Shown here one piece after another: positions 8,537 to 49,348 of a DNA stretch of 64,000 bases (the stretch's first letter is position 1; every line of letters begins with the position of its first letter). The position numbers and the translations under genes are program-made. The stretch is from the NCBI GenBank assembly GCA_030656575.1, contig JAUSPO010000047.1:3030-67029 (forward strand), given 5' to 3'. Source of the DNA: Bacillota bacterium (GTDB lineage Bacteria > Bacillota > Dethiobacteria > DTU022 > UBA8154). The notes under the pieces are model-generated. The model made no database searches. It was not told where the DNA came from and saw only the letters and a list, made by a program, of their open reading frames with translations.

Positions 8537-8627
8537 GAATCCATGTCCTGCATCCGTATACATCCTTTTGTTTGACTATGGTTAAAATAAGTTTTATAAT
8601 AATTTAAAGTATTATAAATAAAAGCCA

Positions 8628-8910
8628 TGATCGGGAGAGTAGAGTGGTTTTTTTGCCTTTTAAGCGAGCCGGAAAGTGGTGGGAGACCGGTAAAGGCGGC
8701 CATATTGAAGATCACCCGGGAGTTCTTACTTTAAAAGCTCGTTAGTCTGTAATGTCTTAAATAAGTCATTCTTTCTGCGGCAAGTAGAAGTAAGCGTGAG
8801 ATTAGGCTGCGTTAAGCCGAAAGGGGTTATAGTTTAATTTCAGCTGTAACAACAAGGGTGGTACCGCGGGAAAATCTCGTCCCTGAGAGGCGAGATTTTA
8901 TTTTTTTTGT
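8628..8910 (+). promoter_or_regulatory. T-box riboswitch leader (Ile-specific) with intrinsic terminator
   Basis: Conserved T-box sequence AAGGGTGGTACCGCGG at 8854..8869. Terminator hairpin AAAATCTCGTCCC...GAGGCGAGATTTT plus a U-run at 8871..8909. A candidate AUC specifier lies in GAAGATCACC. Located upstream of ileS. Confidence 0.8.
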
Positions 8911-9008
8911 AAATAAAATATAAGGAGGTTAGAGCCTGGTTATTTATTTTATGGTGGGGGTCCTTGGAGAACTTAAGGTTTTGAGAGGATTGAACCAGGC
9001 GGTTGTTT

Positions 9009-15008: not shown

Positions 15009-16769
15009 TCACTGCTGTTTGATAGAATCAAGAATTTTCTTATGGGGTGTTACATAGATTGTTCTTTGTTTACTGTATGTAACCATGCCCGGCTTTGCGC
15101 CTGGTATACGGCGTACATTCTTAACAGGAGTATAATCTACGGGGACATTTGATGAATCTGCCCCACGACTAAAATAGGCTGCCAGATGGGCGGCTTCTTT
15201 TATTGTTTTTTCATGGGGGTTTTCCGATCTTACAATCACATGAGATCCGGGCATATCTTTCACATGAAACCAGAGGTCCGTTTTAATGGCAAAATGATGG
15301 ATGAGATAATCATTTTGCCTGTTATTGCGTCCAACAAAAATTTCTTCGCCCATGGAAGATATAAACTTACTGAGATTTGTTGAGCCAAATGAGGTATTTT
15401 TTTTGGTGCCATAATGTTTTTTTTCCACGGGCAGGTACCCGGTCTCAGCAAGCTCGTCCCTCACTTCACGAAGGGCCTGCAAATTTGATTGTTCCAGTGA
15501 GAAAAGAACAGTTTCAAGATAAGATATTTCATTTTGGGTCTGTTCCAGTTGTACTTTAATCATCTTTTCGCCCTGTTGTGCTTTGCGGTATTTTTTAAAG
15601 TAGCGCTGTGCATTTAAGGATGGAGATAATTGTGGGTCCAGGACTATTTTAACCTTCTCCCCGTGCTCACTGAAGACATTTTCCAGGAATATTTCACTTG
15701 ACTTTTCAGGTATTTGTTTTAAATTCATGAGGATTAGCTCCCCACACTGACGATAATAACCCGCTTCCCCTGTCTTCTCCAGCTCAGATAACTGGATTTT
15801 TTCTTTTTTCCTGAACTTTTTTAAAGCCTGTTCGCTGTTCCGGAAAAGGAAAGCTGACAAGTTCTCTTTTTCTTCTATTGTCTCCCTGTACTCATAAAAT
15901 TCATCCAGAAGGATGCTCACAGAATTAAATTTGCGTTTATGATTAGACGCAGTCTGCACAGTATTGATCACAGTATAATCAAGGGGTTTGCCCTCATGGT
16001 CATTAAGAAGTGTGGGTTCCCATTTTGATTCCTGGTAAGTTTGCAAAAAATCCTCCAGTTTCTTCCATAAAGGGAGCGATGCTTCCTCTGAGAGGAGTGG
16101 GGTTTGTGCTCTCCCGGCAATTTCCCTGGCTAAAAAAGGGCTTAACCCCTGTATATTCTCCAGGAGAAACTTGCTGGTAGGCTGCCCCTTAAGTCTCTCA
16201 ATTTCCTGATTAAAAAAATTGAAATTTAGTGCGTAGGGATGCAGTTTTTCCTGAGCGGGCGGCGGATGGTAGATGTGCCGGGGAAGAAGCGTTCTCATTC
16301 GATTTAACGAAGAAGATACAGGTTTTAAGGTGCCAAGGATAACCTGGTTACCTTCTTCGTCAGGGGTATCAAGGAGTAAAAGGTTGCTGTGCCGTCCCAT
16401 GATTTCTGCGGTAAGGGTTTTCTTCGCTTCTCTTCCACTTTCGTTTACAGCAGAAAAATGTAAAAAAAGAACCCTTTCCAGAGGAGGCTGTTCCAGAGAA
16501 ACAAGATACCCTCCGCTAAGATGCTTACGCAGCAGCATGCAGAAAGAAGGTGGGTTATCAGGATGGATGTAACGGCGGTTTGTAAAATTTATTCTTCCTT
16601 TATTTGTGTGAATTGAAAAGAAAAGAGGTCGTTTTTCTTCTCCTTTAAAATAGAAGATCATATCTGTGCTGTTTAACTGGTAAATTCGGCTGATCCTGTT
16701 CCCTGTTTTTATTAGTTTCTCTTCCAGTTCCTTTGAAACCGCGTTTAATACCAATGCATCAAAAGCCAT
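15009..16769 (-). CDS. rqcH: ribosome-associated quality control factor RqcH (NFACT / fibronectin-binding FbpA family)
   Basis: 586 aa on the - strand with NFACT-N (MAFDALVLNAV..), coiled-coil and NFACT-R domains. Confidence 0.85.
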   Translation of the reverse strand: MAFDALVLNAVSKELEEKLIKTGNRISRIYQLNSTDMIFYFKGEEKRPLFFSIHTNKGRINFTNRRYIHPDNPPSFCMLLRKHLSGGYLVSLEQPPLERVLFLHFSAVNESGREAKKTLTAEIMGRHSNLLLLDTPDEEGNQVILGTLKPVSSSLNRMRTLLPRHIYHPPPAQEKLHPYALNFNFFNQEIERLKGQPTSKFLLENIQGLSPFLAREIAGRAQTPLLSEEASLPLWKKLEDFLQTYQESKWEPTLLNDHEGKPLDYTVINTVQTASNHKRKFNSVSILLDEFYEYRETIEEKENLSAFLFRNSEQALKKFRKKEKIQLSELEKTGEAGYYRQCGELILMNLKQIPEKSSEIFLENVFSEHGEKVKIVLDPQLSPSLNAQRYFKKYRKAQQGEKMIKVQLEQTQNEISYLETVLFSLEQSNLQALREVRDELAETGYLPVEKKHYGTKKNTSFGSTNLSKFISSMGEEIFVGRNNRQNDYLIHHFAIKTDLWFHVKDMPGSHVIVRSENPHEKTIKEAAHLAAYFSRGADSSNVPVDYTPVKNVRRIPGAKPGMVTYSKQRTIYVTPHKKILDSIKQQ

Positions 16770-16958
16770 TTTTCCTCCTATTGGGGAGATTGTCTCCTAC
16801 CTTATTCTGGAAGACGATGAATTATCCCTATTCAGTATATCTGTTAAGAGCAGAAAAAACAAACATCTTTGTCACCCTTTTCCGGGCTGGTTCTTTTTTT
16901 TTGTTTGGGGGAATAAAAAAATAGTATGAGAATTCATCCATAGTTATTCTGTATAAGA

Positions 16959-17171
16959 GGTGGTGAGTCGCTGAAGCAGAGTCTCCAAGTTCAAGTGGCA
17001 GCTCTTAGCGGCTCAGCTCCGGCACTACGGCAGCTTCCCCGTGGGAACTCCCGTCCAGGTCGTCCACGGGTCTGCTGACGTCCTGTCAGCAGAGCTGCCT
17101 ACGTGCCTGCGCTTTGCCGAGAGCTTACAGCCTACTTGAACTAAGTCGTCTCTGCCACAGTGATCACCACC
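16959..17171 (-). repeat. GC-rich hairpin repeat, copy A (inverted orientation), termini GGTGGTGA...TCACCACC
   Basis: About 90% identical to the reverse complement of copy C at 30013..30227. Carries the CTGCTGACAGGACGTCAGCAG apical palindrome. About 58% GC in a roughly 40% GC genome. Confidence 0.75.
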
Positions 17172-17364
17172 TGGGCAGTAACGTAAGCGGTGGAAACATC
17201 TTTATAAAAATAGTTGTGTTCCGTAGGTTCATGTTAGTTAGTATGTCTTAACTTCGCTGCACAGGGTGTCAGTTTACGTTCTGCGCAATCTGTGGGAACA
17301 ATAGAGTATTATCCGTAACCGTCATTAAATAGTTTTGAACTTAGGGTCAAAGTTAGCAGAAGGG

Positions 17365-17618
17365 GGTGGTGAATGCTGTTGCCGGAATTAACTCTGTTTC
17401 TCCCGGCAAAAAAGCTCTTGGCGAAACGAAGGGCCGGAGGTGACCCTGCTGACAGGACGTCAGTAGGCCCGGCGACGACCTGGAGGGGAGTTCCGCCGGG
17501 GAAGTCATTTTTCAAGGTCTGGGGACACACCTCTTGCAGAGGAATGTCCCCTATGCCTGGAGTTGAGCCTTAGAGCTTTCCGCGAGAAACCGTTAATTCC
17601 GGCTCAGCATTCACCACC
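17365..17618 (+). repeat. GC-rich hairpin repeat, copy B (diverged, with about 60-nt insertion)
   Basis: Shares the termini, the CTGCTGACAGGACGTCAG core and the flanking GACGACCTGGAGGGGAGTTCC segment with copies A and C. Same orientation as C. Lies 160 nt upstream of the Ca-ATPase start. Confidence 0.7.
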
Positions 17619-17772
17619 TGGAGAACAAGAGCGTGGGGAATCATTTTCATATACTGTTGTGATTTGTAGGGACTTGGTGGTAATTATCAGGAGCCTGGAT
17701 CTTGATACAGTATATACAGACCAGTAGGATAGTGTATTTGACCGTACAAATGCTATGGATTGGTGGTGAATT

Positions 17773-20517
17773 ATGAAAAAATCAAGGTTATGGGCTATTT
17801 CACCGCTCAAGGAAGTTTATAACCATTTCAGGGTTGATCCGGGATATGGGATTAGTGAAACGGAAGCTCTTCAGCGATTAAAAAAATGGGGCACCAACAC
17901 AATCGAAGAGAAAAAAAGAAAAAGTGTTTTTGAAATTTTTCTTGATCAGTTCAGGGACTTTATGGTTTTAGTTCTCCTGGGAGCAACCTTGGTTTCCGGA
18001 TTGCTGCATGAGTACAGCGATGCCATAACTATTATTGTAATTGTGGTCTTAAACGCAGTCCTGGGCTTTATCCAGGAGTATAAGGCAGAACGTTCTTTTG
18101 AGGCGCTAAAAAGTCTTTCCGCACCCAGGGGTAAGGTGTTAAGGGAAGGGGGCCTAAAGGAGATTCCTGCTGAAGATGTTGTCCCTGGGGACGTAATTGA
18201 TGTCAGGGCAGGGGATCGTGTCTGTGCTGATATTCGTTTAATTCATACTGATGCTTTGATGGCAGATGAATCTCCACTTACAGGCGAATCGGTTGCTGTA
18301 GAAAAAGAAGACGCCACATTAAATTTTGTGCCTTCCTCTCCCGGAGACACTAAGAATATGGTATTTAGCGGAACTCTAATTATTAACGGGACAGGACGCG
18401 GTATTGCCGTTGCTACTGGTATGGAAACGGAAATGGGAAATATCGTTTCCCTCATTCAGGAGGTGGAAGTAAGTAGTACACCTCTGCAAAAAAGGCTGGC
18501 CAAACTGGGAAAGGTTCTGGTGCTAGCCTGTTTTGTTCTCTGCCTTTTTGTTGTGGTGATGGGTTTGTGGAGAGGTGAGGAATTATACAAGATGCTTATG
18601 GCGGGGATTTCACTGGCAGTGGCTGCCATTCCTGAAGGACTTCCTGCAATTGTTACCATATCTCTTGCGCTCGGAGTTCAGCGCATGGTCAAACGCAAAG
18701 CTATTGTTCGTCGTCTGCCTGCAGTAGAGACACTAGGTTGTGCTACGGTGATCTGTTCTGATAAAACTGGGACAATTACTCAAAATAAAATGACCGTAAA
18801 AAGTATCTATACAAACGGTGAATTCTGGAATGTAGAAGGAGAAGGTTATGAACTAAGCGGGATGTTTTACCAGGGGCATAAAAAAGTAGACGCTTCCGGA
18901 GAAGAGCATTTATCCAAAACGCTTCTTATTGGAGTCCTGTGCAATAATGCTCTTCTTGTCAAAAATGATCGGAGAATTACGCCTAAAAGTTTCGATAAGA
19001 GTGGAAAAGCAGAGGGAAATCCAACAGAGGCCGCCTTGTTAGTTTGTGCTGCAAAGGCCAATATTTGGAAGGAACAGCTTGAAGAAAGGTTTCCGAGGAT
19101 AAAAGAGTTTCCATTTAGTTCGGGAAGGAAGTGTATGTCGGTTCTCTGCCGTGAAGGGGAGAAGATTAACCTCTTTGTAAAGGGAGCCCCGGAACGCATT
19201 CTAAATATGTCTTCTTATATATTTGAAGACGGCAAAGTGAGGCCCCTGAGAGAGGAGCACCGTAAAAAAATTCTTAAACAGGTAGATATTTTGGCTGGCG
19301 GTGCATTAAGAACCCTGGCCGTGGCTTACAGGACAGTTCCCTCCAGTGCGTTGTCATCAGGTGCAGATGAACTTGAAAAAGAGCTTGTTTTTACGGGGTT
19401 CTTCGGTATGATCGATCCCCCCCGTCCTGCCGTTTTAAAAGCTATTAAAAGCTGTGATCGTGCCGGAATTCGTATTACTATGATTACTGGTGACCACAGA
19501 AATACGGCTGTGGCAATCGCCAGGCAAATCGGTATTCTTAAATCAGGCGGAGAAGTGATTACAGGCGATGAGCTTGATCGGTTAAACGAAAAAGAACTTT
19601 TCGGCAGAATAGAAAAACTATATGTCTTTGCCAGAGTCAGTCCCGAACATAAACTGCGTATTGTACGCTGCTTAAAAGCCAGGGGTCATATTGTGGCCAT
19701 GACTGGTGACGGCGTTAATGATGCGCCAGCTGTAAAAGAGGCCGATATAGGCATTGCCATGGGTTCAACAGGAACAGAAGTTACGAAAGAGGCGGCATCA
19801 CTAGTTTTGGCTGATGATAATTTTAAAACTATTGTAGCTGCAGTGGAAGAGGGTAGGGGTATTTACGATAACATCCGCAAGTTTATCAGGTTTCTCCTTG
19901 GTTGTAACCTTGGAGAAATTCTTACCATGTTTCTGGCTATGTTATGGGGGCTGCCTCTTCCTTTACGCCCTATACAGATTCTCTGGGTTAATTTGGTAAC
20001 TGATGGTCTTCCGGCTATGGCTCTAGGGGTGGATCCCACTGAAAAGGATGTAATGCAACGACCGCCCCGCTCTCCGTCAGAAGGTGTTTTTGGAAGGGGT
20101 TTATGGAAAAAAATTCTGACTAAGGGGTTTATTATTGGGGTTACCTCTGTTCTGGTCTTTGCTTTTGCTCTGATTACTTCATCCGAGCTTATTTATGCCC
20201 AGACGATGGCTCTTTCAACCTTGATTGTAACCCAGCTTCTACACGTTTTTGAATGTCGCTCCGAATATCTGAAAGTCTGGGAGGTTGGTTTCACACGTAA
20301 TCTTATGCTTGTTGGGGCTGTTGTTGTATCTTTCTTCCTCTTACTGTGTATTGTATATAATCCTTTCCTTCAGTCTGTATTCCAGACTTATCCTCTAAAG
20401 GGCAGTGATTGGATTATTATTTTTGGAGCTTCTTCCATAACATATGTATTGAGTTTCCTTTCTTGGTGTATTGGAAAAGCAATTTACAGGGAGACTGGTC
20501 AGATTATCTCTAAATAA
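17773..20517 (+). CDS. P-type (P2-type) Ca2+-transporting ATPase
   Basis: DKTGTIT phosphorylation motif, TGDGVNDAPA hinge, 10 predicted TM segments, 914 aa. Confidence 0.85.
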   Translation: MKKSRLWAISPLKEVYNHFRVDPGYGISETEALQRLKKWGTNTIEEKKRKSVFEIFLDQFRDFMVLVLLGATLVSGLLHEYSDAITIIVIVVLNAVLGFIQEYKAERSFEALKSLSAPRGKVLREGGLKEIPAEDVVPGDVIDVRAGDRVCADIRLIHTDALMADESPLTGESVAVEKEDATLNFVPSSPGDTKNMVFSGTLIINGTGRGIAVATGMETEMGNIVSLIQEVEVSSTPLQKRLAKLGKVLVLACFVLCLFVVVMGLWRGEELYKMLMAGISLAVAAIPEGLPAIVTISLALGVQRMVKRKAIVRRLPAVETLGCATVICSDKTGTITQNKMTVKSIYTNGEFWNVEGEGYELSGMFYQGHKKVDASGEEHLSKTLLIGVLCNNALLVKNDRRITPKSFDKSGKAEGNPTEAALLVCAAKANIWKEQLEERFPRIKEFPFSSGRKCMSVLCREGEKINLFVKGAPERILNMSSYIFEDGKVRPLREEHRKKILKQVDILAGGALRTLAVAYRTVPSSALSSGADELEKELVFTGFFGMIDPPRPAVLKAIKSCDRAGIRITMITGDHRNTAVAIARQIGILKSGGEVITGDELDRLNEKELFGRIEKLYVFARVSPEHKLRIVRCLKARGHIVAMTGDGVNDAPAVKEADIGIAMGSTGTEVTKEAASLVLADDNFKTIVAAVEEGRGIYDNIRKFIRFLLGCNLGEILTMFLAMLWGLPLPLRPIQILWVNLVTDGLPAMALGVDPTEKDVMQRPPRSPSEGVFGRGLWKKILTKGFIIGVTSVLVFAFALITSSELIYAQTMALSTLIVTQLLHVFECRSEYLKVWEVGFTRNLMLVGAVVVSFFLLLCIVYNPFLQSVFQTYPLKGSDWIIIFGASSITYVLSFLSWCIGKAIYRETGQIISK

Positions 20518-20635
20518 ATATAAATTCTTTAATATACCTTAAATTTAACCCAATGCACTCATTTATGCTTGATTATGCTTTTTTTTATGGTAAAATAGGG
20601 GTGGACAAAAAGCAAAGAGATAAAGGGGAATAACA

Positions 20636-21517
20636 TTGGCTAGAAGCATGACAGGATACGGCAGAGGAGAGAAGATTGAGAATGGTTATCGCTTTGTTGT
20701 AGAGGCAAAAGCTGTTAACCACCGACATTTTGATCTTCTGATCAGGGCCTCAAGAGATCTGCTGCCCCTTGAGGATATTATTAGGCGGATCATGCAGGAG
20801 AAAATTTCTAGGGGAAGGGTTGAAGTCTTTGTCAATCTGGAATCAACCCGGGAGAACAGAAAAGAAGTGGTCATTGATGAAGATTTGGCTGCATCTTATT
20901 TCCAGGCACTGGGCAAGCTGCGAAGTACTTTAAATCTGCCGGAAGGAGATCTGACTGCCATAGAGCTATCCCGCTTCCCGGAGATTTTTCATGTAGAGAA
21001 AACAACGATAGATTTGGATATTTTATCACCAGTATTAGAAGGAGCAGCAAAAAATGCTGTATCAGAGTTATTCCGCCATAGGGTGGAAGAGGGTTACAGG
21101 CTGGAACTTGACATTACGATGAGGTTAGACAACCTTAAACAGATTAATAAAAGAATTAAAGAAAAGGGTCCTCTTTTCCTTGATGAATACCAGAGAAAGC
21201 TGAGTTCCCGTTTGGATGAACTGCATAATGATAAAGAGTACGATAAACAGCGCTTTTTTATGGAGGTTGCTATTTACGCCGAGAGATGCAATATCGACGA
21301 AGAAATCGTTCGCATGGACAGCCATTTACAGGCTTTCGGCAAAGAACTTGTTAAGGATGAGGTTATGGGACGTAAGCTTGATTTTCTTCTGCAGGAGATG
21401 AACAGGGAGATCAATACTATTGCGTCTAAAAGCAGCGACCTGGAAATATCTCAACTGGTGGTGGAAGCAAAAAGCGAAATTGAAAAAATAAGGGAACAGG
21501 TACAAAATATTGAGTGA
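20636..21517 (+). CDS. yicC: YicC-family protein (stress-induced, endoribonuclease YicC/YloC)
   Basis: N-terminal MxxSMTGYGRGE signature, about 293 aa. TTG start 7 nt after an AAAGGGG Shine-Dalgarno sequence. Confidence 0.85.
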   Translation: MARSMTGYGRGEKIENGYRFVVEAKAVNHRHFDLLIRASRDLLPLEDIIRRIMQEKISRGRVEVFVNLESTRENRKEVVIDEDLAASYFQALGKLRSTLNLPEGDLTAIELSRFPEIFHVEKTTIDLDILSPVLEGAAKNAVSELFRHRVEEGYRLELDITMRLDNLKQINKRIKEKGPLFLDEYQRKLSSRLDELHNDKEYDKQRFFMEVAIYAERCNIDEEIVRMDSHLQAFGKELVKDEVMGRKLDFLLQEMNREINTIASKSSDLEISQLVVEAKSEIEKIREQVQNIE

Positions 21518-21657
21518 TAAAAGAGGTGAAAGCGTCTTGCGCAGAAAATCAATTGCTCAAAACTAATTTAATAAACATTTTTTAGTAACTCTTTTGCGAA
21601 AATATTACATTTGAACTTAGCCAAAAAACGAAAGGAGGCAGCGGTTCAACTCCCGGT

Positions 21658-21957
21658 TTGGAGTTTAATCGCACAATTCTAATGACTATTAAGCTAATTA
21701 ATATCGGGTTTGGCAATATTGTTTCAGCAAATCGTATTATTGCTATTGTTAGCCCTGAGTCCGCGCCTATTAAAAGAATAATCGGTGAAGCTAGAGACAG
21801 AGGTATGTTGGTGGATGCCACATATGGCAGGAGGACCCGCGCTGTTATTATTACTGATAGTGGGCATGTAATTCTATCCGCAGTACAGCCTGAGACAGTG
21901 AAACATCGTTTACAGAGCAAAGAGTCTGCAGTCGAAGAAAGTTCAAACAAGGTATAA
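21658..21957 (+). CDS. remA: extracellular matrix/biofilm regulator RemA (DUF370)
   Basis: [30 protein letters not shown] is the RemA/YlzA signature. The true start may be the ATG at 21682. Confidence 0.8.
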
Positions 21958-21979
21958 ACTTATATTTTTGGAGGAAGTT

Positions 21980-22633
21980 ATGGATAAGGGGTTATTACTT
22001 GTAATATCCGGACCTTCCGGTACGGGCAAGGGGACAGTATGTAAAAAGCTTTGTGAACAAAACCCCTCTTTGTATTATTCTATCTCAGCTACTTCCCGTC
22101 CTCCAAGGAGGGGTGAGAAAGATAACGTCAATTACTTCTTTCTGACGGAAGAACAATTTTTGGAACTCCGGGAAAAGGATGCTTTTCTTGAGTGGGCCAG
22201 AGTATATGATAATTATTATGGAACTCCTTCACAGAAGGTGCAGGAAAAGTTAAATAAAGGTTATGACGTTATTTTAGAGATAGATACGCAGGGGGCAAAA
22301 CAGGTTAAAAATATTGCAAAAGAGGCTGTATTTATTTTTTTATTGCCCCCTTCTATGGAAGATTTATGGTTACGCATTAAAGGGAGAGGAACGGATGGGC
22401 AGGAAGTGATAGAAAAACGATTTGCCGCTGCTCATCATGAATTACAGGAAATTGAGAATTACGATTATGTGGTAATCAACGATAATGTGTCTGAAGCAGT
22501 TTGTAAGATTGAGGCAATACTCTTAGCGGAGAAATGCAGTCTTATAAGAAACGAGGATGTATTGTCCAGGCTAGTAGAGGAAGGTGATAAAATTGATCTA
22601 TCCCTCCATCGACGGAATGTTAAAAAAGGTTGA
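21980..22633 (+). CDS. gmk: guanylate kinase
   Basis: P-loop GPSGTGKGT near the N-terminus. ATG follows a GGAGG Shine-Dalgarno sequence. The ORF track begins at TTG 21968. Confidence 0.9.
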   Translation: MDKGLLLVISGPSGTGKGTVCKKLCEQNPSLYYSISATSRPPRRGEKDNVNYFFLTEEQFLELREKDAFLEWARVYDNYYGTPSQKVQEKLNKGYDVILEIDTQGAKQVKNIAKEAVFIFLLPPSMEDLWLRIKGRGTDGQEVIEKRFAAAHHELQEIENYDYVVINDNVSEAVCKIEAILLAEKCSLIRNEDVLSRLVEEGDKIDLSLHRRNVKKG

Positions 22634-22799
22634 CAGCAGGTATTCCCTGGTAATAATGGTATCGAAAAGAGCTCGACAGCTTAGGGAAAAATATGCCGAC
22701 AGGGAAGAGGTAAATAAATATAAAGAGGTAACAACGGCACTGGAAGATGTCTCTTCCGGCAGGATCACCTATGAAAGAATTAAAGATGGTGTTAAGTAA
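22584..22799 (+). CDS. rpoZ: DNA-directed RNA polymerase subunit omega
   Basis: PSIDGMLKKVDSRYSLVIMVSKRARQL is the RpoZ signature. Start uncertain; it overlaps the gmk 3' end. Confidence 0.8.
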   Translation: MIKLIYPSIDGMLKKVDSRYSLVIMVSKRARQLREKYADREEVNKYKEVTTALEDVSSGRITYERIKDGVK

Positions 22800-22837
22800 G
22801 GGGCTTATGAAATACTGGATACAGTGAGTGTGGTAAT

Positions 22838-24040
22838 ATGCTAAAAAATAAACTGATATTATTGGGTATTACAGGAGGTATAGCATCTTATAAAAGTGCT
22901 GAGCTGGCCAGACTTCTTGTTAAAGAGGGCGCTAATGTTCAGGTTGTTATGACGAGGAATGCAGAGGCTTTTATCAGTCCTCTTACCATGAGGGCCCTTA
23001 CAGGCCACCCTGTCTACAACTCCCTGTTTGACCCGGCGCATGGGACGGCTACTGTGCATATAGATCTGGCGCGTGATCCCGATCTGGTACTGGTTGCCCC
23101 TGCAACGGCTAATATTTTAGGGAAGATGACTGCCGGCATCGCCGATGACCTTCTCTCCACAGTCTTAATGGCAGTAAAAACAACAAAATGTCCTGTTATT
23201 CTGGCACCGTCAATGAACACCGCTATGCTGCAAAATCCAGCGGTTAGAAATAATATAAATGTTTTACGCAAAAGAGGCTTTATTGTTGCCGATCCTCTTG
23301 AGGGTAATCTGGCATGCGGTGATGTTGGAAAGGGTCGTATGGTTGAACCTGCTGGTTTACTCGAACTGGTTAAAGAAGAGCTTGCAGCCCGTGAGGATTT
23401 GCAGGGGCTTACCTTTTTGATCACTGCCGGACCTACTCGGGAGTCCCTTGATCCAGCCCGCTTTTTTAGCAACTATTCCAGCGGACGTATGGGATACGCC
23501 CTTGCCAGGGCAGCACGGGAAAGGGGTGGACATGTTATTTTAATCAGCGGCCCAACTGTCCTTGAGCCGCCCTCTGGCGTTGATTTTTTCCCTGTCGTAT
23601 CTGCCCGTGAGATGTATGATATTGTTATGGAAAAACTAACTCTTGCCCATATTATTATTAAAACAGCTGCTGTTGCTGATTACAGGCCTGAAGAAACTTT
23701 TCCCCAAAAATTAAAAAAAGGCGACGACCTGATTCTTAAGCTTGTGCGTAATCCTGATATTTTAAAGGAAATAGGCACAAAGAAGGGAAAAATCTATTTG
23801 GTTGGTTTTGCAGCGGAAACAGAAAATATTTTGGATAATGCCCGTAAAAAAATGGAAGAAAAAAATCTGGATCTTATTGTAGCAAATGATCTTTGTCAGG
23901 AAGGTGCCGGTTTTAATCATGATACAAACATAGTCAGTTTGCTTTATAAAGACGGGAGCGTGGAAAGTCTTCCGCTTATGTCCAAAGATGAACTCTCTCA
24001 TCAGATCCTTGATCGCATCAAGAAATTTAGGAAAAAATAA
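22838..24040 (+). CDS. coaBC: bifunctional phosphopantothenoylcysteine decarboxylase / phosphopantothenate-cysteine ligase
   Basis: 400 aa with an N-terminal flavoprotein domain (ILLGITGGIASYK) and a C-terminal DFP ligase domain. Confidence 0.9.
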   Translation: MLKNKLILLGITGGIASYKSAELARLLVKEGANVQVVMTRNAEAFISPLTMRALTGHPVYNSLFDPAHGTATVHIDLARDPDLVLVAPATANILGKMTAGIADDLLSTVLMAVKTTKCPVILAPSMNTAMLQNPAVRNNINVLRKRGFIVADPLEGNLACGDVGKGRMVEPAGLLELVKEELAAREDLQGLTFLITAGPTRESLDPARFFSNYSSGRMGYALARAARERGGHVILISGPTVLEPPSGVDFFPVVSAREMYDIVMEKLTLAHIIIKTAAVADYRPEETFPQKLKKGDDLILKLVRNPDILKEIGTKKGKIYLVGFAAETENILDNARKKMEEKNLDLIVANDLCQEGAGFNHDTNIVSLLYKDGSVESLPLMSKDELSHQILDRIKKFRKK

Positions 24041-24104
24041 TACTGTCCCCTAAGGGAGGATGGGATTTTTGTTAATCCTGGTAGGTTCATCTATGATCCT
24101 GCCT

Positions 24105-24722
24105 TTAATTTTTTATGATCAATTGGATCAGCATGGGAGTTACCAGGATTTCTATGATAGCGGCAATGATCAGGAGGCTCAAAATCAAGGGTAGAAGTAA
24201 AAAAAACTCTTTCCAGACATATCTTAGACTCTCCCACCGTTTCTTTTGGGGAAGGGGGAAAACCAGATGAAAACCCATCTTCATTCCAAAAGCGGAACTT
24301 ATAAAAAAAGCAGGCAGCTCAAAAATTCCATGAGGAAGGATTCCCAATGACATAAAAGCAAGAAGGGGAATGTCTTCATTTACCAGGCCTGCAGCGATGC
24401 TTCCAAGTAATGCTCCGTTTGTGAATAAACCAATGAGTGGAACAATTCCCAGGAAAATACCCATCAGTATCATCTGCAGGGAAGCAAAAAGGTTATGAAG
24501 AAAAAGGCGCATGATACCTATCAGAGGGGGGGCTTCAAAAATTGACTGAGCCAGTTCATATAAAAGCTCCTGCTGGCTTTCTGTCAGTTCTGTAAGAAAG
24601 AATCTGCCGTCACCAAAAGCTAAAACAGAAGTAATAATTCCTAATATAAAGAATAGCAGTGCAAGAATAAACCAGTTTAGGTTTTGTATAAGAATGGCCG
24701 TTACTTTTTGTTTTAAAAACAT
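24105..24722 (-). CDS. SpoIIM-like (DUF95) polytopic membrane protein
   Basis: 205-aa polytopic membrane protein on the - strand with DUF95-like hydrophobic pattern (LFLHNLFASLQMILMGI...). Inserted between coaBC and priA. Confidence 0.45.
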   Translation of the reverse strand: MFLKQKVTAILIQNLNWFILALLFFILGIITSVLAFGDGRFFLTELTESQQELLYELAQSIFEAPPLIGIMRLFLHNLFASLQMILMGIFLGIVPLIGLFTNGALLGSIAAGLVNEDIPLLAFMSLGILPHGIFELPAFFISSAFGMKMGFHLVFPLPQKKRWESLRYVWKEFFLLLPLILSLLIIAAIIEILVTPMLIQLIIKN

Positions 24723-24827
24723 CTCTACTCCTTTTTATAAAAATATTTGTCTTTTCATAGTCTTTTTCATTATAATCTTTTTCGTTTTGAAAATAAACTT
24801 TTTTTTTATGACAGGGGTGCCCTAAGA

Positions 24828-27074
24828 TTGAAAGAAGACCTGTATGCGCAAGTAATTCTGGATCTGGTAAGTGATGCAGTGGACAAACCCTTTCAATATT
24901 TTATTCCTGAAGAATTGCGTGATCAGGTCGAAATCGGAACGCGTGTGTTGGTCCCATTTCGATCGAAGAAAATAAACGCCTATATCGTAGCGATGGACAG
25001 AGAACCAGTAGTGAAGAATACGAGGGAGATAATCAATGTAGTAGAAAATAATCCTATTTTATTACAAGAATTTGTTGAATTAAGCTATTGGGTTTCCAGG
25101 CGTTTCTTTAGCAGGTGGATAGAGGCTATACATCTTTGCCTTCCTCCCGGAGATGGAAGCTCAAAAACAAAATATGTTGATTATATTATGCCGTTGGTAC
25201 AGCCCAGGATAATGATAGAGGAAAGCGAAAATATTAAGAAAAAAGCCCTGCGTCAGGCATTAATACTGGAGCACCTGGCTGTGGCCGATGAAAAAGGCCT
25301 CAGCTGGGAGGAGCTTAAGAAAAAAACCGGGGCAGGTCGCCAGAGCTTATTATCTTTAAGAGAGAAGGGTTTCTTAAAGATTCAGCAGGTTCCTCACAAT
25401 CGGGTTTCCCTGGAAGAAAGTGCCTGCTGTGGTATTAATATGAATCTGAAGTTTTCTGTTCAGCAGCAAAAGGTATGGGAGGAAATTAAAAAAGGTTTTT
25501 CTTCTCCTGAAAAGCAGTTTTTATTGTATGGCATAACCGGAAGCGGTAAGACAGAACTATATTTACGCGCTGCTGAAGAAGTCTTGAAAGAGGGACGCAC
25601 TGCTTTGTTTCTTGTACCGGAAATCGCACTTACTCCCCAGATTGTGGAGCAATTCAGTGGGCGCTTTGCCGGTAAGTTTGCTTTATTACATAGCAGCCTT
25701 TCACAGGGGGAAAGATATGACCAGTGGTTGAAAGTAAAAAACGGGGAAGCCCTTGTGGTCCTTGGTGCCCGTTCATCTGTTTTTGCTCCTTTGAAAAATA
25801 TTGGACTTATTGTTATGGATGAAGAACATGAAAATACATACAAACAGGATGATTCCCCCCGGTATCATACCAGGGATGTTGCAAAATGGAGAGCCGCTTA
25901 TCACGATGCTGTATTATTGATGGGAAGTGCCACTCCTTCACTGGAAAGCTATTTGGAGACAAGAAACAAGAAGGTAAAGCTGCTGCAACTTACGGAGAGG
26001 CCTGGCGGGCGTCACCTTCCAAAAGTTCAGGTAGTGGATATGCGCAGGGAATTTAAAAACAGAAACAAGGGTATTTTTAGCCATACACTATGGAAAGCAA
26101 TTAATGAAACCCTTTCCCGGGATGAGCAGGTGATCCTTTTCCTTAACCGCCGCGGTTTTTCCAGCTTCCAGCTTTGTCGGCAGTGCGGCTGTGTTGTTCA
26201 GTGCCCATCCTGTTCTGTTTCTTTAACTTATCATTCTTTCCCTGAGCATCTTCAATGTCACTATTGCGGCTACAGAAGGACAACCTTTGATTCCTGCCCG
26301 AACTGTAAAAGCCTGTCTATCAGGAGCTTTGGCCTGGGGACTCAAAAAGTTGAAAAAGAAGTAAAAAGTATCTTTCCCACAGCTGGGGTAATTAGGATGG
26401 ATAGTGACGCACTGACTGGAAAAGGAGCTTATCTGAAAGTACTAAGTGCATTTAAGGAAAAAAAAGCTTCTATACTCATTGGAACGCAAATGGTTGCAAA
26501 GGGTTTTGATTTTCCAGGTGTTACTTTGGTAGGAGTTATCGCTGCCGATACCAGCTTACACCTGCCGGACTTTCGAGCAGGGGAAAGAACGTTTCAATTG
26601 TTGTCACAGGTAGCCGGCCGGGCAGGAAGAGGGGAACAGGAAGGAAGGGTTATCATCCAGACTTTTACTCCCTGGCATTACAGCATTAAGGCGGCAGCAT
26701 CTCATGATTACTTGAGTTTTATTGAAGAAGAATTAAATAGGAGAAAGCAGCTTTTGTATCCACCTTTTTCTGAAATACTTCTTTTTAACTGCAGCTCTCC
26801 TCATCAAAGTAAAGCAAAGGAATCTGCCGAAAAGTTCAAGTCCTTATTAATGGAGAGATTATTACCTTTGAATGTGAGCGCAGATGAAATACTTGGGCCT
26901 TCTCCAGCCCCCCTGGAGAAGGTTAAGGATCGTTTTCGTTATCATATTCTTTATAAGGGGGCCCACCTGGAAAGAAATTTTAAAGTGATACGGGAGTTGC
27001 TGCACACTTTTAGGAGAGAAATCAAGGGGGACGTGAGGGTCACAGTAGATTTTAATCCTTTGATGATGTTATAA
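24828..27074 (+). CDS. priA: primosomal protein N' (replication restart helicase PriA)
   Basis: Walker A GITGSGKTE, DEEH box, and Cys-rich Zn-binding region CRQCGCVVQCPSCS..CHYCG..CPNC. The ORF track starts at 24747. The N-terminal 27 codons are AT-rich and promoter-like. A TTG at 24828 follows an AGGGG Shine-Dalgarno sequence. Confidence 0.85.
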   Translation: MKEDLYAQVILDLVSDAVDKPFQYFIPEELRDQVEIGTRVLVPFRSKKINAYIVAMDREPVVKNTREIINVVENNPILLQEFVELSYWVSRRFFSRWIEAIHLCLPPGDGSSKTKYVDYIMPLVQPRIMIEESENIKKKALRQALILEHLAVADEKGLSWEELKKKTGAGRQSLLSLREKGFLKIQQVPHNRVSLEESACCGINMNLKFSVQQQKVWEEIKKGFSSPEKQFLLYGITGSGKTELYLRAAEEVLKEGRTALFLVPEIALTPQIVEQFSGRFAGKFALLHSSLSQGERYDQWLKVKNGEALVVLGARSSVFAPLKNIGLIVMDEEHENTYKQDDSPRYHTRDVAKWRAAYHDAVLLMGSATPSLESYLETRNKKVKLLQLTERPGGRHLPKVQVVDMRREFKNRNKGIFSHTLWKAINETLSRDEQVILFLNRRGFSSFQLCRQCGCVVQCPSCSVSLTYHSFPEHLQCHYCGYRRTTFDSCPNCKSLSIRSFGLGTQKVEKEVKSIFPTAGVIRMDSDALTGKGAYLKVLSAFKEKKASILIGTQMVAKGFDFPGVTLVGVIAADTSLHLPDFRAGERTFQLLSQVAGRAGRGEQEGRVIIQTFTPWHYSIKAAASHDYLSFIEEELNRRKQLLYPPFSEILLFNCSSPHQSKAKESAEKFKSLLMERLLPLNVSADEILGPSPAPLEKVKDRFRYHILYKGAHLERNFKVIRELLHTFRREIKGDVRVTVDFNPLMML

Positions 27075-27098
27075 TATTAACAACAAGGGGGGAAATAG

Positions 27099-27575
27099 AT
27101 GGCTTTGAGATACATCCGTAAAAAAATGGACCCTGTATTACGAAAAAAAACAGCTCCTGTTTCCAGATTTACACCTCAACTTTTGGATCTGTTGGACGAT
27201 ATGATCGAAACGATGTTTGAGGCCGAGGGCATAGGTCTGGCCGCACCTCAGGTAGGTATCTCCAAAAGTATTATTGTTGTACGAAATGAAGATAAGGTTC
27301 TGGAAATTATTAACCCTGAGATAATCAATGGCGAAGGTGAAGAACTGGATATTGAAGGGTGCCTGAGCTTTCCGGGTGTTTATGCAGAAGTGCCCCGGTT
27401 TAACCGCTTAGGGGTTAAGGGAATGAACAGGGCAGGAAAAAGTATTACAATCAATGCCCAGGGTTTAATGTCCAGGGTTTTGCAGCATGAGATTGATCAC
27501 CTTCATGGTATTGTATTGATCGATAAGGCTCTCAGGCTGCTTACCCAGGAGGAAATTAATAAAATGAATGAATGA
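27099..27575 (+). CDS. def: peptide deformylase
   Basis: GIGLAAPQ, EGCLS and HEIDH motifs. Confidence 0.9.
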   Translation: MALRYIRKKMDPVLRKKTAPVSRFTPQLLDLLDDMIETMFEAEGIGLAAPQVGISKSIIVVRNEDKVLEIINPEIINGEGEELDIEGCLSFPGVYAEVPRFNRLGVKGMNRAGKSITINAQGLMSRVLQHEIDHLHGIVLIDKALRLLTQEEINKMNE

Positions 27576-27680
27576 AAAACAGAAACTCAGGAGTCAGGAG
27601 TCAGGATGAGACAAAACGGCGAGAACGAAGATTTTGGAATTCGAAACAAAGCAATAAAAGGAATTAGTGAGGTTTTCATT

Positions 27681-28628
27681 GTGAATTTAAATGTCCTATT
27701 TTTGGGAACGCCAGAGTTTGCGCTTCCTTCTCTCAGAAAATTAATTACAGCCAACCTGTCATCACTTGCGGTCGTTACCAGGCCTGATCGTCCTGCCGGC
27801 AGGATGAAACAAAATACTCCAACACCCGTTAAAGTTGAAGCTCTAAAAAATAACCTGGACTTATTTCAACCGATCGACAGGGATGATTTATTAAATGTTT
27901 TAAGAGAAATTAAGCCCCAGGTTTTAATTAATGTGGCCTTTGGGATGTTTTTACCAAACGCAGTACTTGAGTTTCCTCCTTTGGGGTGTATTAACCTTCA
28001 CCCTTCCCTGCTTCCTGCTTACCGCGGGGCAGCGCCCATACAGAGGGCTGTGATGGCCGGAGAGGAATATACAGGAGTTACAGTGATGTACATGTCTTCC
28101 CGGATGGATGCGGGTGATATTATCCTACAGGAAAAAACAAGTATCGGATCAGAGGAAAATTTTGGCTCCCTTTATGACCGGCTTGCCGAACTTGGGGCAG
28201 CCCAGCTGCATAAAGCCCTGGGCCTTTTGAATGAAGGGAAAGCTCCCTGTATTTCTCAGGATGAGGAAAAGGTATCTTATGCGCCTGCTATCTCCAGAGA
28301 AGATGAAAAAATTGCCTGGGAGAAACCTGCTTCTGAGATATTTAATCTGGTCAGGGCTCTTAATCCTGCACCAGGAGCTTTTACCATATTCAGAAGTAAA
28401 AGATTGAAGATTTGGAGAGCTTCCGTTCAAAATATAAGGAATTTGCAGCCATGCTTAGTGCCCGAAACATCCGGGACAATCTGTTTTTTGCACAAAGACT
28501 GTATTGAAGTAACAACAGGCCGTGGAATGCTTAAAATCCTTGAACTTCAGCCGGAAGGGAAAAGGAGAATGAGTGCCCGGGACTTTTTAAAAGGCAATGA
28601 TTTGAAAGTGGGCGAAAAATTTGAATAA
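27681..28628 (+). CDS. fmt: methionyl-tRNA formyltransferase
   Basis: VLFLGTPEFA N-terminus, and HPSLLPAYRG catalytic motif. GTG at 27681 follows a GTGAGG Shine-Dalgarno sequence. The ORF track begins at ATG 27606, giving a 25-aa extension without Fmt similarity. Confidence 0.85.
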   Translation: MNLNVLFLGTPEFALPSLRKLITANLSSLAVVTRPDRPAGRMKQNTPTPVKVEALKNNLDLFQPIDRDDLLNVLREIKPQVLINVAFGMFLPNAVLEFPPLGCINLHPSLLPAYRGAAPIQRAVMAGEEYTGVTVMYMSSRMDAGDIILQEKTSIGSEENFGSLYDRLAELGAAQLHKALGLLNEGKAPCISQDEEKVSYAPAISREDEKIAWEKPASEIFNLVRALNPAPGAFTIFRSKRLKIWRASVQNIRNLQPCLVPETSGTICFLHKDCIEVTTGRGMLKILELQPEGKRRMSARDFLKGNDLKVGEKFE

Positions 28629-29409
28629 AATTCTACCAGATAATAATACAATTAAGAAGAGAACTTTTTTGGGTTTACTGCTGATAGCACTTTTATTTCT
28701 TTTCTTCCTGGCAGTGTATCTCCTGGTGTTTGTCAGGTATCCTTATGCGATCTATTCCCGGACATTTGCATTGGGGTTAACCATATCTGCTCTTATTTTG
28801 TCTTTCCTTTTTCTATGCGGCTTACTGGCCATAGTTTTTACAATTTTAAAAAAGCGCACCTTTATGCCTTTTAAATGGTTTATGGACAAAACACTGCTGC
28901 TGCTTTATCCCATTGTGCTGCAAATAGGACGATTTATGCACATTACCCAGGAAAAGATCCAGCGATCTTTTATAGAAGTTAATAACCAGCTTGTATCTGC
29001 ACGTTCTGTGGAAGTCAAGGCAAGTGAGCTTTTGCTGATTCTACCCCATTGCCTTCAGAACGACAGCTGCACATATAAAATTTCTCATGACGTAGAGAAC
29101 TGCCGGAGATGTGGGGATTGCCAGATGGCTGATATTCTCCAATTCACGTCTGAACGGGGGATTCGGGTTGTCGTTGCCACTGGGGGCACCCTTGCCAGGC
29201 GCGCTGTAGAAAGGCACCGCCCGCGGACTGTGGTTGCCGTGGCTTGTGAAAGGGATCTTTCAAGCGGGGTTCTTGATACTTTTCCTTTACCGGTTGTCGG
29301 TGTAATTAATGAGAGGCCGCAGGGGCCATGCTATAACACAAGGGTAGACTTAAAGAATCTGCAAGACGTCCTCGATCAATTATCCTTAAAACCAAAGGAG
29401 GTTACTTAA
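28621..29409 (+). CDS. DUF116-family membrane protein
   Basis: N-terminal TM helices and a C-terminal Cys cluster (CLQNDSC..CRRCGDC). Commonly encoded between fmt and rsmB in Clostridia; this placement is recalled knowledge. Confidence 0.55.
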   Translation: MNKILPDNNTIKKRTFLGLLLIALLFLFFLAVYLLVFVRYPYAIYSRTFALGLTISALILSFLFLCGLLAIVFTILKKRTFMPFKWFMDKTLLLLYPIVLQIGRFMHITQEKIQRSFIEVNNQLVSARSVEVKASELLLILPHCLQNDSCTYKISHDVENCRRCGDCQMADILQFTSERGIRVVVATGGTLARRAVERHRPRTVVAVACERDLSSGVLDTFPLPVVGVINERPQGPCYNTRVDLKNLQDVLDQLSLKPKEVT

Positions 29410-29413
29410 GAAT

Positions 29414-30011
29414 ATGGGTGGTTTGTGGTTTTTTGATACGGGGTTTATCATTTTCCTTATCCCTGCCATGTTTTTTGCCATGTATGCCCAGAATAGGGTG
29501 AAAAGCGCCTATGTGCGCTACAGTAGAATTCGTGGCAGTAACCTTGTTTCCGGATCGCAGGTAGCGAGATCGCTTCTTAATGATGCAGGATTGGAGCATA
29601 TCAAAGTTGTGCAGACGGATGGTCATTTGACAGACCATTACGATCCTCGTCAGAAAGTGGTCCGCCTGTCACCCCAGGTTTTTCGTGATAACTCCCTGGC
29701 TGCCATTGGCATAGCTGCCCATGAGGTTGGTCATGCCTTGCAGCATGACGACGGTTATGCTCCCCTTGGCATCCGTAATTCTATTGTTCCCCTGGCCAGC
29801 TTCGGCTCCAGGGCTGCTTTTCCCCTCTTCTTTATTGGCTTATGCCAGCAGGCGGGCCGTTGCCTTACTGGAAAGCGGGGCTTTCCTTCAGGGAGAGGAA
29901 CTGACAGGAGCAAAAAAGGTTCTTAATGCAGCAGCTTTAACTTACGTAGCCGCTTTGGCGGTTTCATTGGCTCACCTTTTTCGGATGCTGTTGTTAAGAG
30001 GAAGAGATTGA
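29414..30011 (+). pseudogene. zinc metallopeptidase (Zn_peptidase_2 / YugP-like) disrupted by a frameshifting internal deletion
   Basis: Frame 1 (29414..29926) encodes the N-terminal TM segment and the HEVGHALQH motif. The expected C-terminus (ASRRAVALLESGAFLQGEELTGAKKVLNAAALTYVAA) is encoded in a different frame (29721..30011). About 25 codons of the central TM region appear to be missing. Confidence 0.6.
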
Positions 30012-30012
30012 A

Positions 30013-30227
30013 GGTGGTGATCGCTGTTGGCAGAGACGACTTGGTTCAAGGAGGCCATAAGCTCTCGGCAAAGCGTAGGCACGAAGGTAACTCTGCTGAC
30101 AGGATGTCAGCAGGCCCGTGGACGACCTGGATGGGAGTTCCCACGGGGAAGTTGCCGTAGTGCCGGAGCTGAGCCGTTAAGAGCTGGCCACTTGAATTTG
30201 GAGACTCTGCTTCAGCGACTCACCACC
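30013..30227 (+). repeat. GC-rich hairpin repeat, copy C (reference orientation), termini GGTGGTGATCGCTG...CAGCGACTCACCACC
   Basis: 215-nt imperfect palindrome centred on CTGCTGACAGGATGTCAGCAG. It starts 1 nt after the disrupted metallopeptidase and ends 25 nt before the rsmB ATG. Confidence 0.75.
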
Positions 30228-30252
30228 CCATTACATAAGTAGGAGTGAGTAA

Positions 30253-49307: not shown

Positions 49308-49348
49308 GATCGTCTGGCAGCTGACTGGATGTCAGCTGCCAGACGATC
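49308..49348. terminator. 41-nt perfect palindrome (18-bp arms), probable bidirectional terminator between convergent genes
   Basis: GATCGTCTGGCAGCTGAC-TGGAT-GTCAGCTGCCAGACGATC. It lies between the 3' ends of the + strand thioesterase and the - strand acyl-CoA ligase. There is no U-tract. Confidence 0.5.

Follow-up and report, generated by a model that had tools for sequence, protein, structure and literature searches.

A Family of Rod-Shaped Hairpin Repeats with Conserved Tips in an Uncultured Dethiobacteria-Like Lineage of Bacillota

Introduction

To our knowledge, bacterial genomes contain few persistent families of non-coding repeats, mostly without a known means of spread. The members of the ERIC/IRU, Correia/NEMIS, RUP, BOX and bcr1 families are ~100–250 bp long and often co-transcribed into RNA hairpins, and they keep their terminal repeats and are usually associated with a TA or similar duplication. 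The insertion sequences (IS) of the IS200/IS605 family and their palindrome-associated elements move by single-strand "peel-and-paste" transposition. The single-strand origins (sso) of rolling-circle plasmids, which are 130–280 nt in length, are single-copy replicon parts beside rep genes, with conserved loop motifs and with stems that covary between plasmids. The subject of this study is a family of hairpin-forming repeats, here called rods, that was found in a 64,000-nt stretch of DNA (hereafter the window) from a Bacillota bacterium (GTDB lineage Dethiobacteria; DTU022; UBA8154; GenBank assembly GCA_030656575.1, contig JAUSPO010000047.1, positions 3,030–67,029 of the forward strand). The rods resemble REPINs more than they resemble classical miniature inverted-repeat transposable elements (MITEs). 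REPINs are doublets of repetitive extragenic palindromic (REP) sequences that form hairpins of ~70–110 nt, with highly conserved REP 16–25-mer ends and a variable central spacer, and they are mobilized by the tyrosine HUH enzymes known as REP-associated tyrosine transposases (RAYT) or TnpA-REP (PMC3116915).

The rod family combines insertion polymorphism between near-identical genomes, strong strand-specific covariation and a pattern of conservation that is reversed relative to that of transposase-bound ends. Together, these traits suggest that what is recognized is a folded single strand, which may be single-stranded DNA (ssDNA) or RNA. The family provides a compact case for how REPIN-type hairpin elements are copied in Gram-positive lineages without a described REP system. 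The rods also break the short-read assemblies of these uncultured genomes and put very stable hairpins into operons, where the copy that lies 25 nt ahead of rsmB could alter mRNA processing.

Results

Structure, Covariation and Strand Bias of the Rods

By its RsmB and RqcH homologs, the window falls in an uncultured lineage of Bacillota near metagenome-assembled genomes labeled as Dethiobacteria. Three rods are present in the window, at the coordinates given in an earlier note that had been made from the sequence alone. Copy A, recovered by a repeat search, is a 213-nt type 1 rod on the minus strand (16959–17171; fold −124.5 kcal/mol, z −9.1; covariance-model score 149 bits) that reads 5'-GGUGGUGAUCAC...GACUCACCACC-3'. 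Copy B is a 254-nt type 2 rod on the plus strand (17365–17618; 118.6 bits), and copy C, a 215-nt type 1 rod that is also on the plus strand (30013–30227; 147 bits), sits between the Zn-peptidase gene and rsmB. Copies B and C are 12.4 kb apart and belong to separate operons. The identity between A and the reverse complement of C, previously put at about 90%, is 92% across an aligned 159 nt and rises to 98% in the terminal 41 nt. Copy B is indeed a diverged copy, with ~81–83% identity over a 93–94-nt core; this core is kept, and the stems depart from those of A and C through compensatory changes. The insertion in B had been estimated at about 60 nt; alignment of the copies puts it at 41 nt (254 nt vs. 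213–215 nt). As had been observed, the termini GGTGGTGA...TCACCACC and the central CTGCTGACAGGAYGTCAG and GACGACCTGGANGGGAGTTCC are invariant across the three copies; the 21-mer GACGACCTGGANGGGAGTTCC occurs three times in the window, compared to 0.00 expected in shuffled sequences. The GC richness is likewise borne out, at 60.1% (A), 56.7% (B) and 58.1% (C) vs. 41.7% for the window, and no internal open reading frame (ORF) is conserved, as each frame is interrupted by stops in one copy or more.

Each copy folds into a single long hairpin, as the earlier note had proposed, with fold energies from −124.5 to −142.9 kcal/mol and z scores from −9 to −11 relative to shuffled sequences. The tip of this hairpin is branched: ~70 bp formed between the 5' and 3' halves end in a three-way junction that bears two sequence-conserved hairpins, H1 and H2. 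The covariation analysis was based on an alignment of nine full copies, on which RNAalifold predicted 73 pairs, 30 of them with compensatory double changes. In a cleaned structure of 72 pairs, 92.6% of the cells were standard pairs, and 30 of the 72 pairs showed double changes, compared to 13.0 ± 2.4 in shuffled alignments (none of 500 reached 30) and to 4–10 in controls in which the partners were slid by 1–3 columns. The covariation analysis that the earlier note had proposed thus shows a fold that is kept by compensatory changes.

The constraint is specific to one strand. G·U pairs exceeded A·C mismatches by 33 to 6 overall, the counts for the six closest copies being 23 and 0, and the forward strand, which reads GGUGGUGA...UCACCACC, folded more stably than its complement in all nine copies, by 4–29 kcal/mol. 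The asymmetry was −124.9 vs. −106.0 kcal/mol with RNA parameters and −65.1 vs. −59.1 kcal/mol with DNA parameters. Taken alone, the strand asymmetry fits both RNA and ssDNA, and the excess of G·U over A·C fits each equally well. Covariation above background and strand specificity, the two general marks of a conserved structured nucleic acid, are both found in the rods, and these results show that a one-stranded fold is under purifying selection.

A Conserved Tip and Drifting Stem Ends

Sequence identity between copies ranged from 0.73 to 0.98 at the tip and from 0.38 to 0.93 in the basal stem. The conservation peak thus lies at the tip and not at the ends, which is the opposite of the transposon pattern. 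The conserved tip is composed of H1, with the sequence CUGCUGAC-AGGAY-GUCAGCAG, and of H2, which contains GACGACC.GGA.GGGAGUUC. H1 of copy A (GCUGAC-AGGAC-GUCAGC) lies at 17074–17090 on the minus strand, and its equivalents are at 17448–17464 in B and at 30095–30111 in C. This hairpin, helix 8 of the structure, is 97.5% paired, and six of its nine pairs are invariant. The most conserved single-stranded or internal-loop segment is GACGACCUGGAUGGGAGUUCC of H2, at 30121–30141 on the plus strand in copy C, with equivalents at 17044–17064 (minus strand) in A and 17474–17494 (plus strand) in B. Purine-rich internal loops are also conserved, e.g., GNA opposite RGA and RA opposite GA.

The rods had been described as bounded by terminal inverted repeats of ~14 bp. 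In the window copies the ends GGTGGTGA/TCACCACC are invariant as described, but they are not conserved in the family as a whole, where the stem ends covary. The terminal 8 nt are identical in 10 of 12 copies. The other termini are GGTAGCGA/TCGCTACC in the copy of contig L036 and GCAGATGG.../...CATCTGC in copy L035b, and pairing is kept in both.

A solitary perfect hairpin with an 18-bp stem and the loop UGGAU was found between convergent genes at 49308–49348 (plus strand). Its top, GCUGAC-NGGAU-GUCAGC, equals H1, for which the chance expectation is 0.01. It may represent a mini-element related to the rods or a protein-binding hairpin that is shared with them, and the match suggests that the hairpin is a recognized module in its own right.

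Further Copies and Distribution of the Family

When metagenome contigs were scanned for the tip hairpin, matches were obtained at 28 loci, in which real copies were judged by blastn and by a covariance model of the 129-position core. Seven of these loci (L016, L018, L023, L025, L030, L035, and L036) contain real copies. The covariance model gave 12 matches in all, at 98–149 bits, nine of which are in these seven contigs. The total copy count is at least 14, with nine copies beyond the window in contigs of close relatives and two in an unrelated contig, so that the further copies sought on the earlier note's advice do exist. Six of the seven copy-bearing contigs came from one JGI metagenome (3300025516), which is also home to a relative with a 92%-identical RsmB. 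The seventh, L018, is an unrelated and GC-richer contig from another metagenome. It carries two tandem diverged rods (1087–1602) with ~72% identity to C and a 305-nt period, which adjoin an ABC ATPase gene. Given the occurrence of these rods in an unrelated contig, the family reaches beyond the lineage of the window. Contig ends coincided with copies in three cases, and the source genome's Logan contig likewise breaks off within copy C, 54 nt upstream of rsmB; this is the usual effect of repeats on short-read assembly.

The other loci of the metagenome scan matched only by a hairpin of 21–25 nt and were set aside as chance. Ten of them (L009–L011, L014, L017, L019, L026, L027, L029, and L032) have in common a 25-nt stretch with 96% identity to H1 and its flanks. 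At least four of these contigs are labeled as human gut, and the covariance model found the hairpin alone; this match was judged to be chance, within one conserved gut sequence.

Searches elsewhere were negative. No copy was found in ~180 kb of loci of relatives at 68–74% protein identity. An exact-pattern scan with GACGACCTGGANGGGAGTTCC, the 20-base core motif, yielded one chance match only, in Mycolicibacterium, among 185,579 species genomes, a collection that evidently lacks the source species. No match to plasmid or phage collections was found by blastn, and two scans of viral contigs gave hairpin-only matches, in which the "full-length" covariance-model matches at 24–26 bits rest on the hairpin alone. 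A six-frame pseudo-protein of C and B, concatenated so as to reveal ORFs miscalled within further copies, had no match among 5.8 billion proteins. Rfam 15 gave no match to the three window copies at the gathering threshold and nothing relevant at E up to 10, and nothing relevant to the relatives' copies at E up to 1. In the literature on repeats in Dethiobacteria, nothing relevant was found. The element is lineage-restricted, in an uncultured Dethiobacteria-like lineage of Bacillota, and the family appears to be previously undescribed and narrowly distributed.

Occupied and Unoccupied Sites in Close Relatives

The earlier note had asked whether insertion sites are polymorphic between strains, and presence and absence were indeed observed between close relatives at two loci. 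At the first, copy C is missing from L003, L004, L005, and L067, four assemblies of the relative with the 92%-identical RsmB. In L003–L005, the stop codon of the Zn-peptidase gene and the start codon of rsmB are separated by 19 nt. The empty site reads GAGATTAA|TATAAGTAGG and the filled site GAGATTGA|A[rod]CCATTAC|ATAAGTAGG, so that the extra DNA in the window, 30012–30234 on the plus strand, is composed of a single A nucleotide, the rod and CCATTAC (223 nt, with boundaries uncertain by a few nucleotides). The Shine-Dalgarno sequence and start codon of rsmB are untouched by copy C.

The second locus is the intergenic region between rqcH and the Ca-ATPase gene, which is 1003 nt long in the window and contains A and B head to head. 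In L066, of a cluster with 86% RqcH identity, ~110–180 nt lie between rqcH and the Ca-ATPase gene, and there is no rod; the more distant relative L038, at 68% identity, has 204 nt and no rod at this site. L037, which belongs to the RqcH cluster of L066, starts with what looks, by eye, like a copy's 3' end and its tail, although the covariance model gave no match there, and its junction at this locus is unlike that of the window. No clean target-site duplication was found at either the rsmB or the rqcH/Ca-ATPase site, and none flanks A, B or the copies in L023 and L016.

Tails and Putative Leader of the Element

Most copies are followed by a 3' tail of ~30 nt that is largely unpaired and contains the motifs TTAC and YAACT, in most tails 4–9 nt and 10–20 nt past the rod, respectively. 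The tail of A, TCTTATACAGAATAACTATGGATGAATTCTC (16928–16958, minus strand), is 31 nt in length, has TTAY and YAACT as in the other tails, and is absent from the unoccupied relative L066. On its 5' side, rod A is flanked by GCCCA, preceded by GTTTCCACCGCTTACGTTACT, in a leader-motif region at 17172–17197 (minus strand). A GGTTYCACC..CAC-like motif is found 5' of rod A and of the rods at the unlinked loci L023 and L036, and alone at the rod-less site of L066. This motif may be a preferred target-adjacent motif, a leader of the element or a relic. We considered whether the leader is a separate dispersed repeat and rejected this, as the window holds no other copies of it. Copy L035c lacks its 5' half but shares its 3' half and tail with L035b. 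A pseudoknot between H2 and the tail was also rejected as too weak, with 4–6 complementary bases and one possible covariation.

Discussion

Comparison with Known Systems

Like REPINs, the rods are non-coding, extragenic and multi-copy, occur singly and in clusters and in both orientations, persist in one lineage, have neither classical terminal inverted repeats nor target duplications, and form a long single-strand hairpin that is kept by compensatory changes. Unlike REPINs, they are conserved at the center and variable at the ends, an inverted pattern in which the conserved ends typical of REPINs are not found; they are also twice as long and possess a three-way tip and a 3' tail. A REPIN system would have a cognate single-copy RAYT (Y1 HUH) gene, usually with REPINs on its flanks, and no RAYT gene was seen in the 64 kb of source genome and the short contigs. 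The derivatives of IS200/IS605 are similar to the rods in that they lack terminal inverted repeats and target duplications, are strand-specific and are recognized through a hairpin. The TTAC that lies a few nucleotides 3' of the foot of the rod also gives a geometry that resembles an HUH cleavage site. These derivatives have, however, two separate short subterminal hairpins in place of one 215-nt rod, and they insert 3' of a fixed 4–5-nt target, while the left flanks of the rods (…TTGA|, …TACT|) show no fixed target. Neither a TnpA nor a TnpB gene was found nearby, and the omega-RNA families of Rfam gave no match.

With the ERIC/IRU, Correia/NEMIS, RUP, BOX and bcr1 elements, the rods share an intergenic location, an imperfect non-coding palindrome and insertion polymorphism, but they lose their termini, covary extensively and keep a branched tip. 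They also recall plasmid sso and the minus-strand origins of phages, which are strand- and orientation-specific folded rods of ssDNA, but the repeats studied here are dispersed chromosomal insertions without replicon genes, and the plasmid search was empty. Their rod-like fold and conserved internal loops recall 6S RNA, SRP RNA, the CsrB/Rsm sponges and omega-RNAs, but the rods differ from all of these in being multi-copy and insertion-polymorphic and in having no promoter or terminator signals of their own and no Rfam match. The tip-loop ACAGGAUGU resembles the consensus selected for CsrA by SELEX (systematic evolution of ligands by exponential enrichment). As read from the folds, two GGA motifs are in hairpin loops (AGGAY of H1 and UGGAU of H2) and one or two in internal loops; the many loop GGA motifs and the own promoter and terminator of a CsrB/RsmZ-type RNA were not found.

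How the Rods May Be Copied

We tentatively favor, at somewhat less than an even chance, the reading that the rods are a non-autonomous, lineage-restricted repeat that is recognized and copied in the form of a folded single strand, of ssDNA or of RNA. A trans-acting factor would recognize the conserved tip and the tail, and movement would proceed through a single-stranded intermediate, like that of REP/REPIN sequences mobilized by RAYT or of IS200/IS605 in "peel-and-paste," and not by DDE cut-and-paste at terminal inverted repeats. A copy that lands in an operon, such as C, would be co-transcribed as a stable RNA hairpin. We prefer this reading to that of a DDE-type MITE because the features that define MITEs were looked for and do not hold. 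The alternative of the earlier note, a MITE-like element or a family of structured RNAs, is supported in that the rods are multi-copy, are present or absent at two loci and have a covarying fold, and is not supported as regards a MITE in the strict sense.

Several observations weigh against copying as a folded single strand. No mobilizing enzyme was found in the 64 kb of source genome and the short contigs. A factor bound to the tip would be ~100 nt from the ends along each arm, and it is not obvious how it would bring about cleavage at the rod base. The extra DNA does not have uniform ends: it is a single A nucleotide, the rod and 7 nt for copy C, and GCCCA, the rod and 31 nt for copy A, where the ends of copy A hold only if L066 represents the empty state; such non-uniform ends are not expected from a precise transposase. 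A clean empty site is available at one locus only, that of rsmB, and whether a copy was gained or lost is judged by parsimony. The history of the A/B locus is complicated: given that the leader is found alone in L066, the site of copy A may record a deletion and not a site that was never occupied. Finally, the covariation counts came from nine related sequences and partly reflect shared ancestry.

The serious rival is that the rods are functional structured RNAs, either genes for small RNAs or cis modules, of which the tip binds a host protein or RNA while mobility merely makes the copies. We consider this less likely than copying as a single strand, and the two are not exclusive. The strong covariation, the conserved purine-rich internal loops and the nearly invariant tip are as expected of such RNAs, as is the large excess of G·U over A·C together with a strand asymmetry that is much larger with RNA than with DNA parameters. 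The invariant AGUU of H2 is complementary to AACU in most tails, and L018 has AGCU at both positions, a weak correspondence of 4–5 nt.

The gene neighborhoods bear on the same question in both directions. The rods had been noted to precede plus-strand genes, which holds for B, 154 nt ahead of the Ca-ATPase gene, and for C, 25 nt ahead of rsmB, but not for A, which lies 189 nt upstream of a minus-strand rqcH-like gene (15009–16769). All three window copies nevertheless share the direction of their next gene, in agreement with a role as RNA. In the relatives, on the other hand, orientation is mixed, with at least four copies convergent with or antisense to the adjacent gene, and the neighbors (fliD/flgN, an amidohydrolase gene with nrdD, dapB with ydcZ, ychF, and an ABC ATPase gene) are unrelated housekeeping genes without a functional theme. 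In simple scans, neither promoters nor terminators were found in association with the copies, whose flanks are unconserved, and the rods match no Rfam family even at E of 1–10. That rods have inserted into an operon spacer of 19 nt and into a hotspot that holds other copies looks selfish and not functional.

A related reading makes the rods a new kind of mobile structured RNA, in which the tip and tail would form an RNA-level module for a reverse transcriptase or for a host RNA-binding protein such as CsrA, given the ACAGGAUGU-like GGA sites in the two tip loops, and the element would be spread or selected as RNA and not as a DNA transposon. We regard this as improbable.

A classical MITE, i.e., a deleted derivative of a DDE IS with the ends GGTGGTGA/TCACCACC and a short duplication (e.g., TTAA or ATTRA), is in our judgment rather improbable. 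The rods do share with MITEs a short length (213–254 nt), the lack of an ORF, a typical intergenic location, multiple copies (at least 14) and insertion polymorphism with empty sites, and the agreement of the terminal 8 nt in most copies is as a MITE would have it. At rsmB, the TTAA of the empty site could be matched to a TTGA that precedes C and a TTAC that follows it. This imperfect pair is the only one that can be forced onto the empty site, however; it requires two substitutions and one deletion, and nothing comparable was seen at A, B, L023, or L016. Nor does a MITE account for termini that covary in L036 and L035b and for conservation that peaks centrally, and a G·U bias on one strand is unexpected for a double-stranded substrate. 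No parent element was found either: there is no transposase, reverse transcriptase or HUH enzyme among the window ORFs that were checked, no transposase beside the relatives' copies whose neighbors were inspected, and no transposase in the six-frame protein search.

The rods could also be RNA-mediated retroelements, analogous to short interspersed nuclear elements, in which a reverse transcriptase would recognize the tip and copy from the 3' tail before insertion, so that copies would be constant in the 3' region but variable or cut short at the 5' end. Such copying would conserve the tip and the tail motifs and leave the basal stem free to covary, and it agrees with the bias to one strand, with the lack of terminal inverted repeats and of a fixed target-site duplication, with the loss of the 5' half in L035c, which keeps the 3' half and tail of L035b, and with the lack of the 5' pre-rod segment in C. 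However, no reverse transcriptase was seen near any copy, the sole 5'-truncated copy could be a simple deletion, and the tail of C is also short (7 nt vs. ~31 nt), contrary to what target-primed reverse transcription would give. We know of no spread of this kind by reverse transcription in bacteria besides that of group II introns, and for this reason the prior for this reading is low; we consider it very improbable.

That the rods reflect a local duplication or an assembly artifact and not a dispersed family, as the three copies in one window and the placement of A and B within 200 nt might suggest, is refuted by the copies in other contigs, which lie beside unrelated genes in independent NCBI, JGI, ENA, and Logan assemblies, and by the 12.4 kb between B and C.

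Other Features of the Window and of the Rod-Bearing Loci

The A/B pair (16959–17618) and positions 1–537 of L035 have the same arrangement, a minus-strand type 1 and a plus-strand type 2 copy head to head, with a spacing of 193 nt in the window and 169 nt in L035, at different loci. A composite unit of A, spacer and B common to both was considered and rejected, as the spacers have no similarity (z = 0).

The 41-nt extra segment of B contains a small hairpin, GGGGACACACCTC-TTGC-AGAGGAATGTCCCC (17521–17551, plus strand), which is a separate small repeat. This repeat (GGGGACACACCTC..GAGGAATGTCCCC, with the prefix TTTTTCAAGGT) is also present in copy L035c (L035 638–668), and it is found alone at ~2171–2210 of L036, upstream of a gene in that relative.

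The ribosome-binding region of the Ca-ATPase gene, GGTGGTGAAT (17762–17771, plus strand), which ends 1 nt before the ATG, equals the first 10 nt of B and is also found in the rod-less L066. The rod ends GGUGGUGAUC and GAUCACCACC are also similar to an ideal Shine-Dalgarno sequence and to the 3' terminus of 16S rRNA. These likenesses may be relevant to targeting or translation.

Upstream of C, the Zn-peptidase gene (29414–30011, plus strand) is split into two overlapping frames of 170 and 96 aa by a 5-nt gap in a G-run, as compared to the intact 236-aa gene of relatives; the split reflects either a frameshift or an error of assembly. In L006–L008, L068–L071, and L073, with 70–74% RsmB identity, the Zn-peptidase gene and rsmB are separated by a DUF6391 gene, which the window and its closest relatives lack.

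The only Rfam match in the window at the gathering level is unrelated to the rods. It is a T-box leader (RF00230, 104.9 bits) at 8618–8887 on the plus strand, upstream of a long ORF (9003–11789) that is presumably ileS, by synteny with L038, in which a class-I tRNA synthetase gene is found at the same place.

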